The notes under the pieces: model-generated
What the model saw: only the letters and a program-made list of their open reading frames with translations
Databases searched by the model: none
Told to the model about the DNA's origin: nothing
Translations under genes and position numbers: made by a program
In this document: positions 1,709 through 6,278 of the stretch, piece by piece
How the letters are laid out: each line of letters starts with the position of its first letter
How positions within the stretch are numbered: position 1 is the first letter of the stretch
Source: a virus
Lineage: Duplodnaviria; Heunggongvirae; Uroviricota; Caudoviricetes
Direction: 5' to 3' (one strand)
DNA length: 10,257 nucleotides
Virus record (IMG/VR): IMGVR_UViG_3300002854_000123
Location: 1-10,257 of that record

Positions 1709-1724
1709 ATTGCCTGGAGAAAAT

Positions 1725-3011
1725 ATGCTTTATAACACCGGCACCATCGCCGTTAATGGAAATACAGCAACCGGCACCGGCACGAACTGGACGGCACCCG
1801 CCAGCCAGGTTCGCGCTGGCCAGACGATTATCGTGATGTCTAACCCGGTGCAGCTGTTCCAGATTTCATCCGTGAACAGCGCGACGTCTTTGACGGTTAC
1901 GCCAGCTGCTTCCCCGGCGCTGAGCGGCCAGAAGTATGGAATCCTGGTGTCAGACAATATCTCAGTCGACGGCCTGGCACAGGCCATGTCGCAGCTCATC
2001 AAAGAGTATGACGAGAACATCGGCGCGTGGGAGACGTTCGCCACTACCTCAGCAAACCAGAGCATCACGGTTACCATCAATGGCACCCCTGTTACGATCC
2101 CCGGCATCGGTAAACTGGCGCAGAAAGGGAGTAACGGTGCGCTGGCTGTTGCTGACGGCGGAACCGGAGCAACAAAGGCAGAAGACGCTCGCACAAACCT
2201 CGGTTTAGGAAGTAGTGCGTTGAAGAATTTGCAAAGCACAACCGAGGATAAAACGACTGGGGCTGTTTTGCAGGTCGGCTCCTTCGGTTTGGGTGCAGAG
2301 GCACCAGTTATTCCTGCCAATGATGCTAACCAAATTACTGGCTATAACGGTTTTGTTTCAGGTGCTGGGGCTCCTGGAACGAACTGGGTAAACGTATACG
2401 GCCCTATGCTCGTTATGAGGAGAATCAGTGCCGTTGCTCAGGTCCAGGTAAACGCTGTGGGTGGACTGGCATCACGCTACGGTCTGGTTACGGACATGAC
2501 CGTTAACAATGGCGGGGCGTGGTGCGTTCACTGGCATGACAGAAACACAACTGTGGACTCAAGCGGGTTCATAAAACGGGCTTCGCCTATCGTTAAGTTG
2601 TTTTCTGATGGAGGCTACGAAACAAATGATGAATCTGAGGGGTGCACAGTTCGCCGTATCGAAACAGGCCAATATCTTATAGAAGGATGTCATGGCCTGA
2701 ATGCAGAGGCTATTTGGGGCGGGGTTGATGGTGGTTTTGAGATCCCCTCAGACCGTAATAAACAGCCGCTGGTATGGCTGGATTATGAGGTAAATGCTGA
2801 TGGTTCGGTGTTGGTTAAAACGTATCATCGAGCACACCCCGAAGCGCCGACGTTCGCCAGGAATGAACTGCAGGGTATCAACGACGGCGACCCAATCGAC
2901 ATTCCCCGCGATCAGTTTGTGTCCGTGCGTGTCGAAATGCCTGGCGATTCTGTATACAACCAGAAACTCAGAGCCGTAGAGCTAATCCTTGCTACTGATG
3001 AAGGTGAATAA
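1725..3011 (+). CDS. Phage tail-fibre protein: N-terminal virion-attachment domain (about 1725-2201) fused to C-terminal cassette 1 (2202-3011)
   Basis: ATG at 1725 is preceded by GGAGA at 1715-1719 (the ORF-track start at 1710 is TTG). The N-terminus MLYNTGTIAVNGNTATGTGTNW is tail-fibre-like. Crossover site A is internal, at the NLGLGSSA hinge. The TAA stop at 3009-3011 lies inside crossover site B. Confidence 0.8.
   Translation: MLYNTGTIAVNGNTATGTGTNWTAPASQVRAGQTIIVMSNPVQLFQISSVNSATSLTVTPAASPALSGQKYGILVSDNISVDGLAQAMSQLIKEYDENIGAWETFATTSANQSITVTINGTPVTIPGIGKLAQKGSNGALAVADGGTGATKAEDARTNLGLGSSALKNLQSTTEDKTTGAVLQVGSFGLGAEAPVIPANDANQITGYNGFVSGAGAPGTNWVNVYGPMLVMRRISAVAQVQVNAVGGLASRYGLVTDMTVNNGGAWCVHWHDRNTTVDSSGFIKRASPIVKLFSDGGYETNDESEGCTVRRIETGQYLIEGCHGLNAEAIWGGVDGGFEIPSDRNKQPLVWLDYEVNADGSVLVKTYHRAHPEAPTFARNELQGINDGDPIDIPRDQFVSVRVEMPGDSVYNQKLRAVELILATDEGE
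2188..2213. other. Crossover site A (gix/hix/mix-like 26-bp site) inside the tail-fibre gene
   Basis: ctcgcacAAACC-TC-GGTTTaggaagt: inverted AAACC/GGTTT half-site cores around a central TC (2200-2201), as in Gin/Hin-family sites. Same orientation as site B, inverted relative to site C. Encodes N-L-G-L-G-S. Confidence 0.6.
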
Positions 3012-3028
3012 AGGTCGGTTTAGGAGAT
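3003..3028. other. Crossover site B (gix/mix-like), overlapping the tail-fibre stop codon
   Basis: ggtgaataaagg-TC-GGTTTaggagat. The right half-site matches sites A and C closely; the left half is degenerate. Central TC at 3015-3016. Confidence 0.65.
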
Positions 3029-3850
3029 AGCGTCACAGCCAACTTTGGAAGCCTCGAAATTGGAGCGAAGAAAGCCTCTTCTGCAAGCTTCGTTGATTTC
3101 CATTTTCTTGGCACTAACGACTATGACGCGCGAATCCTGTGCGGTGGTAATTCCAGTGGTGCCATGGGGAAAGGAGACTTTACATTTTACGCAGGGAGAT
3201 ACATTTTTATCGGCGATAGCTTTGAATTTCGTAATCCAATTACCTGCCAGAACAGCATAAGCGCATCAGCTAAAATCGCGACCAGTGCTGATATGGAATG
3301 CAAAACTAAAATTGCTGTTTTGGCCCCAGCTGACAATCAGAATGCCCACGTATGGTTCTATGGCACAGGTGGGGCATCCAGGGGGGTTATTTATTCCGGG
3401 CAGACAGGAATCATTCAGATCCGTCCTGACAACAATGATAATGGAGGCTCCAACGGATACTCTTTTGCGTTTGGGGCTGATGGTAAGTTCACCTGCGTCA
3501 CGATGAATCAGACTTCGGATGAACGAGTTAAATTCGACAAAGAACCCGTCAGTAACGCTCTGGAGAAGATCTGTTCACTGACGGGGTATACGTTTGGCAT
3601 TCAACTGACTGAATCGGAATCAATACGCAGCGCAGGTATCATCGCCCAGGAACTGGAGCGTGTTCTTCCTGTCGCGGTAAGTTCAGGCGGTACCGGAACA
3701 ACGCAGAATGGAGAAGAGATTAACGATCTCAAAACCGTGGACTACAGTGCGATGAGCGCCCTGTATGTTGAGGCCATGAAGGAGCTGGCCAACCGGGTAA
3801 AAAGCATTAAGAGTGAGCTTGCTGAACTCAAAGCCCGATCCGCGATATAG
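3017..3850 (+). CDS. Promoterless tail-fibre C-terminal cassette 2 with C-terminal intramolecular chaperone (peptidase S74-type) domain
   Basis: Frame is open from site B to TAG at 3848-3850, with no canonical start before the ATG at 3164. The cassette begins GLGDS in the same phase as site A. Contains SDERVK (from 3515) and GIIAQELERVLP, typical S74 autoproteolytic chaperone motifs, and ends in a coiled-coil-like tail. Confidence 0.65.
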   Translation, partial: GLGDSVTANFGSLEIGAKKASSASFVDFHFLGTNDYDARILCGGNSSGAMGKGDFTFYAGRYIFIGDSFEFRNPITCQNSISASAKIATSADMECKTKIAVLAPADNQNAHVWFYGTGGASRGVIYSGQTGIIQIRPDNNDNGGSNGYSFAFGADGKFTCVTMNQTSDERVKFDKEPVSNALEKICSLTGYTFGIQLTESESIRSAGIIAQELERVLPVAVSSGGTGTTQNGEEINDLKTVDYSAMSALYVEAMKELANRVKSIKSELAELKARSAI

Positions 3851-4064
3851 TGTATTAGCTCAGACTTGACCTGACAGTTTGATCTGGCAACAGACTATCA
3901 AAGCTGACCGTCTGCTTTGAGCGAGGAGAGGTAGTTCACTTTCGGGAAAACTCATCCACGTGCGATAGTCTCTAAATGAGAACAGGTCGTTAAGCTGGAT
4001 ACTTACACCCACCTCGGCGAAAGGCTGTACACTGATAACACTTATAGATGATTCTGAGTATTTT

Positions 4065-4847
4065 ATGATTTTATACAAATACATAGACAAAGCTTCATTA
4101 GGTCGGTTCTTCAAAGATGGATACATCTCCATAAAATTTACCCCGCACAGTGAGTTTAATGATCCTTTCGAAAGTTATGGATATGCACTTGATGATGCGT
4201 CAATTGAATCATTAACGATGAGGCATGAGATCAATAAAAACCTTGCCTGCTTATGTCTTTCAAAAAATCCACTCAACGTCTTGATGTGGTCACACTATGC
4301 TGAAAAGCATCAAGGATTTGTTGTAGCAATCGACATTGAGAAAGCAGGATACGATGATGAAGCAAAATGCCTGATTACAGCTCAGAAAGGTGATATTGAT
4401 TATTTAGGAAATAGAATAAAAAGCAAACTAAAAATCACGCAGGAAAATATCTATGATACTGATGTGATTAGTAAGCTATTGCTTACTAAATCATTGCATT
4501 GGAAATATGAAGAAGAAATCAGAATAATAAAAAAGACAGATTCATTACAGCAACAAGGTGCTGTTTTAATTGACAAAATATATGATCTTAATTCTATAGT
4601 CAGTATCTATATCGGGATTAACAACAGAGGAGTTGATGAAATCATTAGAAACAACAATGCATTAGAGACATTGATTTTAAACAAGACAGTACAGTTATAT
4701 CAGTGTGAATTTAAGAAAAGTACATGGGATCTCGACATAGAAGCTTATGAATACACCAAATACCCGCATGATATGCAGAGAATGGATGTATTTGATTCTG
4801 TCGCGAAGGTGTTGAGAGCAATGGAACGTAACCATATAGGCGATTGA
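4065..4847 (+). CDS. AT-rich cargo gene inside the invertible segment; DUF2971-like protein (260 aa), function unknown
   Basis: Clean ORF, visibly much more AT-rich than the flanking tail-fibre DNA. Motifs LYKY near the N-terminus, FNDPFE, LMWSHYAEKHQGF and WKYEEEIR match my recollection of the DUF2971 family; this needs an HMM check. Confidence 0.65.
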   Translation: MILYKYIDKASLGRFFKDGYISIKFTPHSEFNDPFESYGYALDDASIESLTMRHEINKNLACLCLSKNPLNVLMWSHYAEKHQGFVVAIDIEKAGYDDEAKCLITAQKGDIDYLGNRIKSKLKITQENIYDTDVISKLLLTKSLHWKYEEEIRIIKKTDSLQQQGAVLIDKIYDLNSIVSIYIGINNRGVDEIIRNNNALETLILNKTVQLYQCEFKKSTWDLDIEAYEYTKYPHDMQRMDVFDSVAKVLRAMERNHIGD

Positions 4848-4878
4848 GATTATTGATGGCGATTATCGTGTCAGAAAT

Positions 4879-4902
4879 GTCCGCTCCTGGCACAGAGCGG
4901 AC
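4879..4902 (-). terminator. Hairpin (8-bp stem), possible terminator between convergent cassette 3 and the DUF2971-like gene
   Basis: gtccgctc-ctggcaca-gagcggac; on the minus strand it is followed by a weak U-rich tract (auuucu). Lies about 70 nt downstream of the cassette 3 stop. Confidence 0.3.
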
Positions 4903-4969
4903 TGTCAGCTTAAGTTAAGCCCTGAGCAGTAACAGTGCCAAATCAAGTTTGAGCTAATACAGATATAGC

Positions 4970-5641
4970 TTACTGAGCTGAAACCTTAGTCGCAGCCTGT
5001 TCTTCCAAAACCCTGACGCGGATTGCCAGCGCTTTGATTGCTGCTAGCGCATCGAGCAAAATAGGGGTCTGATCAAGATGCAGTATGCCGCCTATTTCTT
5101 TCACGTATTCGGGATCAATCGTTTCAATCTGCTGTGATATTACCCCGCGTCGTGGGGTCTGCGTTTCATCGTCCTTAAAAGTGAAGTGTTTGAATTCCAT
5201 CCGGCAGATATTTAACAACGCCGCTTCCAGATCGAGGTCATCGCCAATGTTTTTCATTGTTCTGTCAGATACCGCTGAAGTCATGATCTCCTTCCACGGG
5301 CTCCAGGCATTGGTGTTGTAACCCCTGAAAAAAAATCGTCCAGCATCAGTTTGGCTTGGATATGGCAAACAAAACTGCGTTAGCGCTACGTCGGCAATAC
5401 GAACATAATTTTGAACATACCCATACCAACTTGAGATAGGTCCTGAGGTTGATTTCGACATATCCAAAAGTAAACGATAAGTTCCTGGCTCTGTAAGACT
5501 GTTGAAGTTTGTCCCATCAGGAGCAACTGCCGAGTCTGTTTTAAATACCCTGGCATCACCAGTAGGTAATCCAAATGCTCCCACTTGCATGACGTTCCCG
5601 GCTGCCGTTCCGACGTCCTTCGTAGCGCTACTTCCCAAACC
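4970..5641 (-). CDS. Promoterless tail-fibre C-terminal cassette 3 (inverted orientation) with C-terminal S74-type intramolecular chaperone domain
   Basis: Minus-strand frame is open from site C (stop at 5648-5650 just outside) to TAA at 4970-4972. Begins (N)VGLGSSATKDVG, homologous to the hinge NLGLGSSALK of the expressed gene. Contains SDRTMKNI and GVISQQIETIDPEYV motifs and a helical C-terminal tail. Confidence 0.65.
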   Translation of the reverse strand, partial: GLGSSATKDVGTAAGNVMQVGAFGLPTGDARVFKTDSAVAPDGTNFNSLTEPGTYRLLLDMSKSTSGPISSWYGYVQNYVRIADVALTQFCLPYPSQTDAGRFFFRGYNTNAWSPWKEIMTSAVSDRTMKNIGDDLDLEAALLNICRMEFKHFTFKDDETQTPRRGVISQQIETIDPEYVKEIGGILHLDQTPILLDALAAIKALAIRVRVLEEQAATKVSAQ

Positions 5642-5655
5642 GACGTTTTATAGAT
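5630..5655. other. Crossover site C (gix/mix-like), inverted relative to A and B, immediately upstream of the invertase gene
   Basis: Top strand acttcccAAACC-GA-CGTTTTatagat; reverse complement atctatAAAACG-TC-GGTTTgggaagt aligns with sites A and B. Central dinucleotide at 5642-5643. Confidence 0.65.
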
Positions 5656-5720
5656 TGCCACGAGGCGGCCTGGCCGATAACTTCATCTGATTTTTTTGCA
5701 GAATTTATTGGGTGAAAAAT

Positions 5721-6278
5721 ATGCAAATTGGCTATGTAAGGGTGTCAACAAATGACCAAAATACGGATCTTCAGCGGCAAGCACTCGAACGCGTAGGATG
5801 TGAACAGATTTTCGAAGAAAAAATGAGCGGAACAGTGGCGAACCGGCCAGCGTTGAAAAAGCTTCTTAAGGCGCTGAATGAGGGGGATACGCTGGTAGTC
5901 TGGAAGCTGGATCGCCTTGGGCGCAGCATGCGGAATCTGGTGCTGCTGGTGGACGAACTCCGGCAGCGCGGCATCCACTTTAAGAGCCTCACTGACAGCA
6001 TCGACACATCAAGTCCGATGGGACGCTTCATCTTTCATATTATGTCAGCCCTGGCGGAAATGGAGAGGGAGTTGATTGTGGAACGCACCCGGGCAGGCCT
6101 GGCTGCAGCTCGTGAGAAAGGGAGAATCGGCGGCAGGCGTCCGAAGCTCACCCTGGAGCAATGGGCTCAGGCAGGGCGGTTGATAGCGAACGGCGTAGAC
6201 AGGAAGCAGGTAGCGATAATTTATGACGTTGCAGTGTGTACGCTTTATAAAAAGTTTCCTGCAGGGATAAAGCTGTAA
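5721..6278 (+). CDS. Serine recombinase, DNA invertase of the Gin/Hin/Pin/Cin/Min family (185 aa)
   Basis: MQIGYVRVSTNDQ (catalytic Ser in VRVST), LVVWKLDRLGRS, SLTDSIDTSSPMGRF, MERELIVERT and a C-terminal HTH (KQVAIIYDVAVCTLYKK) are hallmark invertase motifs. ATG at 5721 is preferred over the GTG at 5712 used by the ORF track. Confidence 0.9.
   Translation: MQIGYVRVSTNDQNTDLQRQALERVGCEQIFEEKMSGTVANRPALKKLLKALNEGDTLVVWKLDRLGRSMRNLVLLVDELRQRGIHFKSLTDSIDTSSPMGRFIFHIMSALAEMERELIVERTRAGLAAAREKGRIGGRRPKLTLEQWAQAGRLIANGVDRKQVAIIYDVAVCTLYKKFPAGIKL

Follow-up and report, generated by a model that had tools for sequence, protein, structure and literature searches.

A 1,111-bp cassette with inverted ends of about 88 bp, bounded by a 7-bp target-site duplication (GATATAG), occupies positions 3851-4961 of the window, a 10,257-nt stretch of a Caudoviricetes virus (IMG/VR record IMGVR_UViG_3300002854_000123) to which all coordinates refer. 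The favored reading, with a probability of roughly 0.65, is that the cassette is a non-autonomous, IS481-derived cargo transposon lodged in an invertible tail-fibre segment, and that its passenger is a DUF2971 defence gene with a DarT-like product.

The left copy of GATATAG (3844..3850), which supplies the ATA-TAG end of the neighboring fibre cassette, is followed by a type A end of about 88 nt (3851..3937, + strand) that begins TGTATTAGCTCAGACTTGACCTGACAG and is recognized in alignments and by nhmmer (E = 4.7e-20). The right copy (4962..4968) follows a type B end of about 89 nt (4873..4961, - strand; nhmmer E = 5.8e-22), which reads TGTATTAGCTCAAACTTGATTTGGCAC... on the minus strand and includes a hairpin, GTCCGCTC-N8-GAGCGGAC, at 4873-4902. 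The cassette edges form a 26-nt inverted repeat (3851-3876 and 4936-4961), with which the outer limits of 3851-4969 given in a preliminary description of this DNA coincide. This repeat is far beyond chance, because it opens two conserved elements of about 88 nt with the E values given above. Between the ends the sole credible ORF is 4065..4847 (+ strand), encoding a protein of 260 aa; the same description had placed a single gene of sharply lower GC content here, and GC is indeed 0.30-0.36 over 4051-4800 vs 0.46-0.50 on either side. The cassette has no transposase of its own and carries this passenger instead. DNA from 3910, 3989 or 4025 onward accompanies the gene in other contexts.

Homologues of the cassette ends are present in phage P2, as the "inverted repeats" annotated at its Z/fun site, where the nhmmer end profile matches at 1865-1951 and 3605-3515 of the P2 sequence (L105). 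These repeats are entered as repeat_region features in GenBank (AJ512676, AJ512680) and bracket foreign AT-rich ORFs. With one mismatch, the outer ~28 nt of the ends are also the right end (IRR), TGTATTAGCTCAGACTTGATCTGACAG, of a 1.2-kb IS481-family IS. The transposase of that IS scores 291.9 bits against NF033577 (cutoff 224), and its copies are flanked by the 7-bp duplications CAGTAAG and GCTACAA. This tie between Z/fun-type ends and an IS481-family IS is derived in the present analysis. Comparison of the sequences suggests that 3851-4961 is a non-autonomous derivative of such an IS, presumably mobilised in trans; no transposase was found inside the long cassettes (L047, L031, L035, L071 and others). 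For the 7-bp repeats, a tyrosine-recombinase or dif-module-like origin was rejected, since their sequence varies from site to site and a DDE-type IS matches the ends. Structured RNA or sRNA was dropped as an explanation of the ends because an Rfam scan of 3600-5200 (E≤1) returned no family and RNAalifold gave 0 consensus pairs for 34 cassette ends. Simple intrinsic terminators were likewise considered, and a scan found none at the ends. A literal search of papers for the end sequence gave only coincidental matches to Cryptosporidium primers.

The gene had been described as a horizontally acquired moron, and comparison with related prophages bears this out: besides the terminal inverted repeats and the 7-bp duplication, the prophage has a relative in E. 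coli, at the same tRNA-Pro/yejM site, with no cassette in the segment centre, and of three sister prophages with an identical site and 7-bp repeat, two have cargo other than DUF2971. Cargo exchange among the sisters is most simply explained by homologous recombination within the conserved ends. The whole pattern might be read this way, with no transposition at all, the ~88-nt elements being module-boundary sequences and the gene having entered and been exchanged purely by homologous recombination. Such an account explains the differing cargo of the sisters well, P2 and half of the cassette sites carry no duplication, and recombination at hotspots is favored by Rousset 2022 and a 2026 preprint. 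It is nevertheless quite unlikely, because homologous exchange is unable to create new sites or duplications. Perfect 7-bp duplications are present at 12 of 24 independent cassette sites vs 0 of 288 controls, and at these 12 sites the flanks are unrelated and the repeats lie exactly at the element tips. The tips, moreover, coincide with one end of an IS481-family IS whose insertions are likewise flanked by 7-bp duplications, and the cassette element is found in unrelated replicons, including lambdoid and P2-like phages, plasmids, and the chromosomes of several orders. A search of IMG/VR for the exact empty site (GATATAG once between two stop codons) gave 0 matches, and one of metagenomes gave 4, all chance matches in unrelated DNA. 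Among E. coli genomes the reconstructed empty TolA-C site is occupied in 796 of 796, and the reconstructed empty site of another cassette (L021) is absent.

The segment around the cassette has three crossover sites. The first, site a (2183..2224, + strand; core ACCTCGGTTTAGGA), lies inside a tail-fibre gene of 433 aa (1710..3011, + strand) that is currently complete with its own Phage_tail_C_2 C-terminus (PF25670, 4.7e-60), and it encodes NLGLGSS in the fibre frame. Site b (2998..3039, + strand; AGGTCGGTTTAGGA) overlaps the stop codon of that gene, encodes KVGLGDS, and starts fibre C-terminus cassette 1 (3011..3850, + strand), a Peptidase_S74 reading frame open from site b (3011/3164-3850) that is silent in the present orientation. 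Site c (5619..5660, - strand; ACGTCGGTTTGGGA) is inverted relative to a and b, and at it begins, with NVGLGSSATKD, the inverted cassette 2 (4970..5650, - strand), also with Peptidase_S74. A serine DNA invertase with a Resolvase N-terminal domain (1.3e-50) and HTH_7 (6.1e-13) is encoded at 5712..6278 (+ strand). Three alternative fibre C-termini are available, and E. coli L003 has the same three-site layout. The invertible segment of the preliminary description, with a chaperone domain in each flanking cassette, is retained, the one correction being that it has three crossover sites and not two.

Cassette 1 DNA is 88% identical to an E. coli tail-fibre cassette that adjoins the invertase in flipped orientation. 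In the window and in L092, cassette 1 abuts the fibre-side half-site; in L003 and L048, where recombinant half-site junctions are seen, it abuts the invertase-side one. Inversion has occurred in this lineage. That the cargo flips with each inversion, as had been proposed, fits the geometry and the presence of both orientations and recombinant half-sites among relatives.

In Mu, P1 and e14 the segment centre is occupied by Tfa/U-type assembly chaperones. Position alone would support a tail-fibre role for the central gene here, such as replacing these chaperones, and this is the most improbable reading of all. Both flanking cassettes have chaperone domains of their own, as noted earlier, namely the S74 domains; the E. 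coli relative functions with an empty centre; sister loci hold unrelated genes; and homologues elsewhere never adjoin fibre genes and the predicted fold is ADP-ribosyltransferase (ART)-like. A tail-fibre chaperone role was rejected on this context and fold.

The product of 4065..4847 matches the full Pfam DUF2971 profile (PF11185, 1-89) with E = 1.3e-9 and 39.7 bits, above the gathering threshold of 22. It also matches five PADLOC models of PDC-S31, a single-gene system (best E = 1.8e-26), and phrog_1762 (E = 5.5e-47); NCBIfam has no model that matches it, and PDC-S31 is named in no paper of the literature searched. An alignment of 49 sequences has 18 family-invariant columns, and the protein has every one of them, among them Y78, Y148, E149 and E151. 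The motifs from which DUF2971 likeness had first been recognized are these same columns: FNDPFE, MWSHYAE and WKYEEEIR hold the invariant F31 N32 D33 P34 F35, W75 H77 Y78, and W146 Y148 E149 E151 R153. A conserved Tyr and ExE motif have been reported for the DUF2971 family, with the Motif I His poorly conserved (PMC12522546). Homologues at 74-99% identity are intact in many genera. Close or near-identical ones are located on satellites, integrative islands, chromosomal islets and in a nin region, and a survey of their neighborhoods places them on mobile elements only and not in the core genome. With this and the domain match, two outcomes that would have told against the preliminary description did not arise.

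The model of the cargo protein has an ART beta-sandwich fold with a modest match to ADP-ribosyltransferases, the structures matched being those of DarT (PDB 7yk3, 7omu, 7omv, 8baq) at 6-14% sequence identity. Foldseek of the model against the PDB gave nothing significant, and a sequence profile of the protein found no match there. E149/E151 (ExE) and Y78/H77, candidate counterparts of the catalytic Glu and NAD-binding His/Tyr motifs of the DarT-like H-Y-E clade, are invariant in the family alignment. The protein is most likely an NAD+-dependent, DarT-like ADP-ribosyltransferase. Membership in DarTG was rejected because the one credible ORF leaves the cassette with no DarG macrodomain antitoxin.

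Candidacy of the gene for defence, raised in the preliminary description, holds by association and homology: the PDC-S31 matches, the published defence Aristaios, the DarT-like fold, the mobile-only homologues, and the contents of sister cassettes. Known defence genes dominate the latter. Cargo of other cassettes includes PD-T7-3, a Lit-like protease, Argonaute-associated genes and a Mrr-STAND protein, two further cassettes carry different PDC-S31 subfamilies, and passengers reach 5.6 kb and comprise whole defence systems. By analogy, we infer that the cargo gene is expressed and has anti-phage activity.

The ART-like fold would also suit a phage weapon, that is, an offensive or takeover ART resembling T4 Alt, ModA or ModB, or an anti-defence protein, used in lytic growth. 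As the segment now lies, the gene points the same way as the late tail-fibre operon, so read-through is possible, and no consensus sigma-70 promoter of its own was found in the upstream region (3938..4064, + strand). This use of the protein is unlikely: each inversion of the segment turns the gene around with respect to late transcription, the homologues occupy satellites, islands, islets and a nin region and not a conserved lytic module, the sole tested member of the DUF2971 family is a defence, and known defence genes dominate the sister cassettes. About as doubtful as an origin without transposition is the view that the gene is a selfish or neutral passenger, either a toxin-like stabiliser of cassette or prophage or a decaying hitchhiker without benefit. 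A DarT-like fold implies possible toxicity, copies with shortened cassette ends exist, and some cassettes bear seemingly arbitrary metabolic genes. Against decay, the ORF is intact with every invariant residue and its homologues are intact as well; against addiction, the cassette has no antitoxin able to create it.

Under the preferred reading of a cargo transposon with a defence passenger, the cassette would resemble a 'mobile insertion cassette', with two ~88-bp terminal inverted repeat subtypes (A left, B right) and one passenger. The convergent fibre cassettes have stop codons 1 nt apart, and transposition into this gap by a staggered cut would have duplicated GATATAG. Because it entered between convergent stop codons, the cassette would sit harmlessly in the middle of a Gin/Pin-type segment and turn over with it. 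Expressed by the prophage in the lysogen, the passenger would be a single-gene defence of the abortive-infection or superinfection kind, and an infecting phage would trigger it to modify nucleic acid or an essential protein. Once the first insertion had taken place, sister prophages may have swapped the cargo of the slot via recombination in the ends.

A broader proposal, to which we give slightly less than even odds, is that one IS481-family IS, found at low frequency both within and outside Enterobacterales, acts in trans to mobilise many transposase-less anti-phage cassettes. If true, the cassettes are a general vehicle by which defence genes reach moron sites and are reshuffled there (P2 Z/fun, the site by P2 gene A, the lambdoid Q-lysis region and, in the window, the centre of an invertible fibre segment), and by which they also reach plasmids and chromosomes. 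Rapid defence-gene swapping would thereby gain the mobilisation mechanism it has lacked, and a central T-R-A preference in the 7-bp target would explain landing at convergent stop codons with the phage unharmed. The DUF2971 gene alone is one more plausible single-gene prophage defence; testing it is worthwhile, given a large family in which a single distant member has a phenotype. Of broader value is the vehicle, with candidate cassettes whose cargo comprises PD-T7-3, Lit, Argonaute-associated, STAND and DUF2971 genes and which include the P2 Z/fun repeats. If confirmed, the cassette ends could be a sequence tag in searches for new defence genes and would help explain near-identical systems in unrelated mobile elements. 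The locus further shows that a tail-fibre segment that inverts can carry cargo safely in its silent centre.

Cargo flanked by inverted repeats at the P2-like Z/fun site was reportedly described by Nilsson, Karlsson and Haggard-Ljungquist in 2004 (Mol Biol Evol 21:1, doi 10.1093/molbev/msg223). The two loci share homologous terminal repeats, the same A/B asymmetry, AT-rich lysogenic-conversion or defence cargo, and a position directly downstream of tail-fibre genes. They differ in that the present host phage is lambda-J-type and not P2-like, the slot lies in an invertible segment, the cargo is DUF2971, and the 7-bp duplication is intact here and lacking in the P2 copy. IS481-family IS and MITEs have comparable TGT... 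termini and a short duplication, and about 28 nt of the ends is shared with the NF033577 IS; the cassettes are transposase-less and differ in ends of ~88 nt in two subtypes, passengers of up to 5.6 kb, and phage moron sites as targets.

Aristaios, a published DUF2971 defence from Lactococcus plasmid pUCCL641_199, is likewise a single DUF2971 protein with an ART-like predicted fold, as compared by the description in its Table 1 and Fig. 4 (PMC11381338). It differs in length (316 aa vs 260 aa here) and in its Gram-positive plasmid origin, and its mechanism is likewise putative. PDC-S31, five HMMs of which match the cargo, is itself a computational candidate only. DarT structures differ from the cargo protein in their low sequence identity, in the absence of DarG here, and in large helical inserts. 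The segment itself resembles Mu G (Gin), P1 C (Cin), e14 P (Pin) and p15B Min in its serine invertase, inverted sites of ~26 bp in the fibre frame, and alternative C-termini; the three sites recall p15B Min, a multi-site system. Unlike those segments, the present one has no Tfa/U genes, because the chaperone function is intramolecular in the S74 domain of each cassette, and a transposon cassette has colonised its centre.

The window carries the right end of a prophage that is integrated at tRNA-Pro(GGG) (8293-8369), adjoining yejM/lapC (8441-10201). Its genes encode a lambda-J-type tail tip, a DUF6453 protein, a tail-fibre protein of 433 aa (1710-3011), two fibre C-terminal cassettes, a serine invertase (5712-6278), and DinI-like and UmuD-like proteins. 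The fibre cassettes, cassette 1 (3011/3164-3850, plus strand) and cassette 2 (4970-5650, minus strand), are convergent, and each encodes a Peptidase_S74 intramolecular-chaperone domain. Only one credible ORF lies between them (4065-4847, 260 aa), and its GC content is 0.30-0.36 versus ~0.5 in the flanks. The product scores 39.7 bits against Pfam DUF2971 (threshold 22) and matches phrog_1762 and five models of the PADLOC candidate defence system PDC-S31 (best 1.8e-26); no NCBIfam model matches it. The preliminary description, which reported a single low-GC DUF2971-like gene and chaperone domains in both cassettes, was right in every particular. The region between the invertase and the attachment site (6548-8188) encodes a 125-aa protein of unknown function (phrog_16322), a DinI-family protein, phrog_3893, and a 106-aa 'UmuD-like' phrog_3469 protein. 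E. coli and IMG/VR relatives keep these SOS-related accessory genes.

The central unit between the fibre cassettes is an insertion. The stop codons of the two cassettes are 1,119 bp apart in the window; E. coli MSB1_9D has a prophage of the same family at the same tRNA-Pro/yejM site, with the cassettes tail-to-tail and 2 bp apart. The 26-nt inverted repeat at 3851-3876 and 4936-4961 is the mere tip of two ~88-nt elements, one at 3851-3937 on the plus strand (nhmmer E 4.7e-20) and one at 4961-4873 on the minus strand (5.8e-22). Directly outside both is the 7-bp sequence GATATAG (3844-3850 and 4962-4968). The pre-insertion sequence would have been ...GCGATATAG-C-TTACTGAGC..., in which the stop codon of cassette 1, a single nucleotide and the stop codon of cassette 2 would mirror the E. 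coli arrangement. Both fibre cassettes are undamaged. The earlier suggestion that the AT-rich gene was acquired horizontally is borne out by the inverted ends, the 7-bp duplication and the empty centre in MSB1_9D.

The ~88-nt element flanking the gene is a transposon end with a wide distribution. The 19-mer TGTATTAGCTCARACTTGA is present in 84 IMG/VR contigs, 60 plasmids and 73 stretches of species-representative genomes, the genomes being those of Enterobacterales, Alteromonadales, Oxalobacteraceae and one Legionellaceae MAG. Profile searches find the element nearly always as convergent pairs around 0.4-5.6 kb. Canonical tips are present at 24 independent sites; at 12 of these a direct repeat lies exactly at the tips with a perfect 7/7 match, and at three more the match is 6/7. 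None of 288 shifted control positions matched. Examples are CATAAAT, GCTAACT, TTTCATG, ATTAAAT, AATAATT, TATCATT, CTTAATC, CATAATC, AATAATA, TTTAAAT and ACTGAAC. Two subtypes of end, A and B, can be told apart, and every typed unit (18/18) has one of each, so that left and right ends are distinct. The ends have neither a consensus RNA structure nor an Rfam match, which fits protein-binding DNA. The duplications of the cassettes and of the insertion sequence described below are AT-rich, with the consensus NNTRANN; in this small sample 10 of 14 have a central TAA/TGA (one strand) at positions 3-5. Such a preference would steer insertion towards stop codons and AT tracts between genes, which may be why cassettes land harmlessly right after genes.

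In many genomes the match to the profile is confined to the outer 27-35 nt. Just inside these short ends, in Catenovulum, Xenorhabdus, Gilliamella, two MAGs and Pectobacterium fontis, is a gene for a 346-367-aa IS481-family transposase (NCBIfam NF033577, 291.9 bits versus a cutoff of 224; Pfam HTH_29 with rve/rve_3). The whole IS is 1,201-1,206 bp long. Its right end, TGTATTAGCTCAGACTTGATCTGACAG..., is the cassette tip, and its left end is TGTATTAGTCGCGAC...TCTGACA. Duplications of 7 bp at IS copies are perfect in two cases (CAGTAAG and GCTACAA) and 6/7 in a third (GATAATT/AATAATT). In P. fontis M022 the motif is at the ends of five contigs (28, 59, 62, 63 and 75; loci L172-L175 and L140), and contig63, at 1,203 bp, is exactly one IS. 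In assemblies this pattern is the mark of a multicopy element with recent activity, and the IS481-family element of this strain is probably active. Full-length copies annotated 'IS481 family transposase' are present in 77 of 5,426 complete E. coli genomes, at up to 10 places per genome. The cassettes encode no transposase and have the tips of the IS; they are therefore read as non-autonomous IS481-family derivatives. Mobilisation in trans would then account for their movement, and an IS481-family transposase may have placed the window's cassette in this way.

The cargo of the cassettes, assigned by Pfam/PADLOC matches, is diverse. P2-EC30 ORF1 is PD-T7-3 (3.5e-168), and P2-EC46 has a Lit/Peptidase_U49-like protein with an endonuclease-effector-like protein. 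Other loci have an Argonaute-associated nuclease with a PD-T7-1/5-like protein and DUF4365 (L031), a 919-aa Mrr_cat protein with a STAND NTPase (L071), a ParA-like ATPase with a RelA/SpoT protein (L030), an FRG-domain protein (L019) and Hp1-Hp2-Hp3 (L035). A second, different DUF2971/PDC-S31 protein (350 aa, L080) adjoins a P2-like gene A. Non-defence cargo (a chemoreceptor; FadL, MscS and alkylsulfatase genes; TauE) is in the minority. The L012 type, a 131-aa TolA C-terminal mimic, is found in 786 E. coli genomes between Q and the lysis genes, and could be a decoy blocking TolA-dependent phage or colicin entry. This commonest cassette is 616 bp long in E. coli FDAARGOS_497 (L107, 4501-5120), with the duplication GTTTATT, and lies in a Qin-like prophage between antiterminator Q/tRNAs and holin, beside a second tolA-like gene. 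No empty TolA-cassette locus was found; every genome with the locus has the slot filled.

Two sister prophages of the window, L092 and L048, share its site, duplication and ends, and their slots hold different cargo: a 244-aa HhH protein in L048, and a 205-aa protein with a third DUF2971/PDC-S31 protein (242 aa) in L092. The same duplication with different cargo is most simply explained by one ancestral insertion, after which cargo would have been swapped by homologous exchange in the ~88-bp ends.

The exact cargo protein is found on a single JGI contig. Homologues with 62-96% identity are present in Buttiauxella, Serratia, Citrobacter, Enterobacter, Klebsiella and E. coli, and all contexts examined are mobile. 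In E. coli P2-like prophages the gene lies between D and ogr, with one complete B-type end still present; in a P4-like satellite it follows the primase. It also occurs next to an AAA_15/21 pair in an int/AlpA/DUF927 island located at smpB, in a small chromosomal islet, and in the nin region (P-Q) of a lambdoid prophage, there with 99.3% DNA identity over window 3910-4904. The nin-region copy comprises the gene and, from each end, just the inner ~25-30 nt. The unit common to all contexts extends from ~3910/3989/4025 to 4903-4911 of the window. In two of the P2-like prophages (L001/L002, 6585-14887) the gene is on the opposite strand to gpD and ogr, gpD is annotated at only ~800 bp, and the tail block from sheath to gpU has the opposite orientation to D, with a 'recombinase family protein' at its far end; these are rearranged P2-like remnants, in which another inversion system may be present. 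The int/AlpA/DUF927 island (L006) has a second copy, 90% identical, of the 30-nt inner B-type hairpin (window 4873-4902) at 9351-9380, ~1.5 kb downstream of the DUF2971 gene and beside the AAA_15/AAA_21 ATPase and 262-aa gene pair; this hairpin copy may be a remnant of another cassette. The nin-region copy (L096, 4155-8622; 99% aa identity) belongs to a group of accessory genes bounded by replication gene P and antiterminator Q; its neighbours there encode a C92 permuted-papain amidase, a GNAT acetyltransferase and an LprI-domain protein.

The cargo protein is predicted to have an ART-like fold, and may be an active NAD+-dependent ADP-ribosyltransferase that would be expressed from the cassette in the lysogen and abort infection by other phages. 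The lack of a consensus sigma-70 promoter upstream of the gene counts against such expression and abortive infection. GenBank annotations of the P2-EC cassettes place promoters inside them. The gene is not fused to anything, so inversion should alter only its orientation relative to late read-through.

The invertible segment is genuine and has three crossover sites with the core TCGGTTTRGGA: a (2183-2224, plus strand), b (2998-3039, plus strand) and c (5619-5660, minus strand), the last inverted relative to the others. Translated in the relevant fibre frame, all three read x-(L/V)-G-L-G. Site a lies within the 433-aa fibre gene, so that the current Phage_tail_C_2 C-terminus of this fibre is itself a third exchangeable module. 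Fibre cassettes 1 and 2 are silent in the present orientation, and the layout allows cassette 1 to be expressed only after two successive inversions. In the window and L092 the half-site next to cassette 1 is the fibre-side one, and in L048 and E. coli MSB1_9D (L003), the latter also with the three sites, it is the invertase-side one; these junctions prove that inversion occurs in the lineage. The invertase-proximal flank of L003 (5964-6842) provides a GTG start whose reading frame crosses site c and enters whichever cassette adjoins it; the protein is annotated at 292 aa. The equivalent short leader in the window (5640-5690, minus strand) is closed by TAA (ctataaaac versus ctattaaac in E. coli). 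The 'silent' position may be expressed in some relatives. In L048 (7383-9887) the reading frame of host-specificity protein J continues into the last 156 residues of cassette 2, an in-frame fusion that apparently arose by a large deletion of the DUF6453 gene, the 433-aa fibre gene and the cassette start; this prophage is probably defective.

Two GenBank records, AJ512680 (P2-EC46 proviral Z-region) and AJ512676 (P2-EC30), contain features labelled 'left/right inverted repeat' that match the inner part of the ~88-nt element; both records underlie the 2004 work of Nilsson, Karlsson and Haggard-Ljungquist. Published work covers the DUF2971 family, its probable fold and a defence phenotype of one member, and annotation of the P2 Z-site repeats dates from 2004. 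Neither inverted repeats nor transposition come up in Rousset et al. (2022), and a 2026 preprint calls the swapping mechanism unresolved. In the searchable literature, exclusive of Nilsson et al. (2004), which may anticipate part, we found no report of the 7-bp duplications, the A/B asymmetry of the ends, their tip identity with an IS481-family IS, the spread of cassettes over lambdoid phages, plasmids and several bacterial orders, or cassettes inside an invertible fibre segment. The three-site layout resembles the p15B Min multi-inversion system more closely than Mu G. The ~88-nt element also flanks the Z/fun genes of P2, right after the tail-fibre assembly gene G and before FI; the P2 right repeat is of the same subtype as the window's left end, and the P2 left repeat of the same subtype as its right end (alignment A1).
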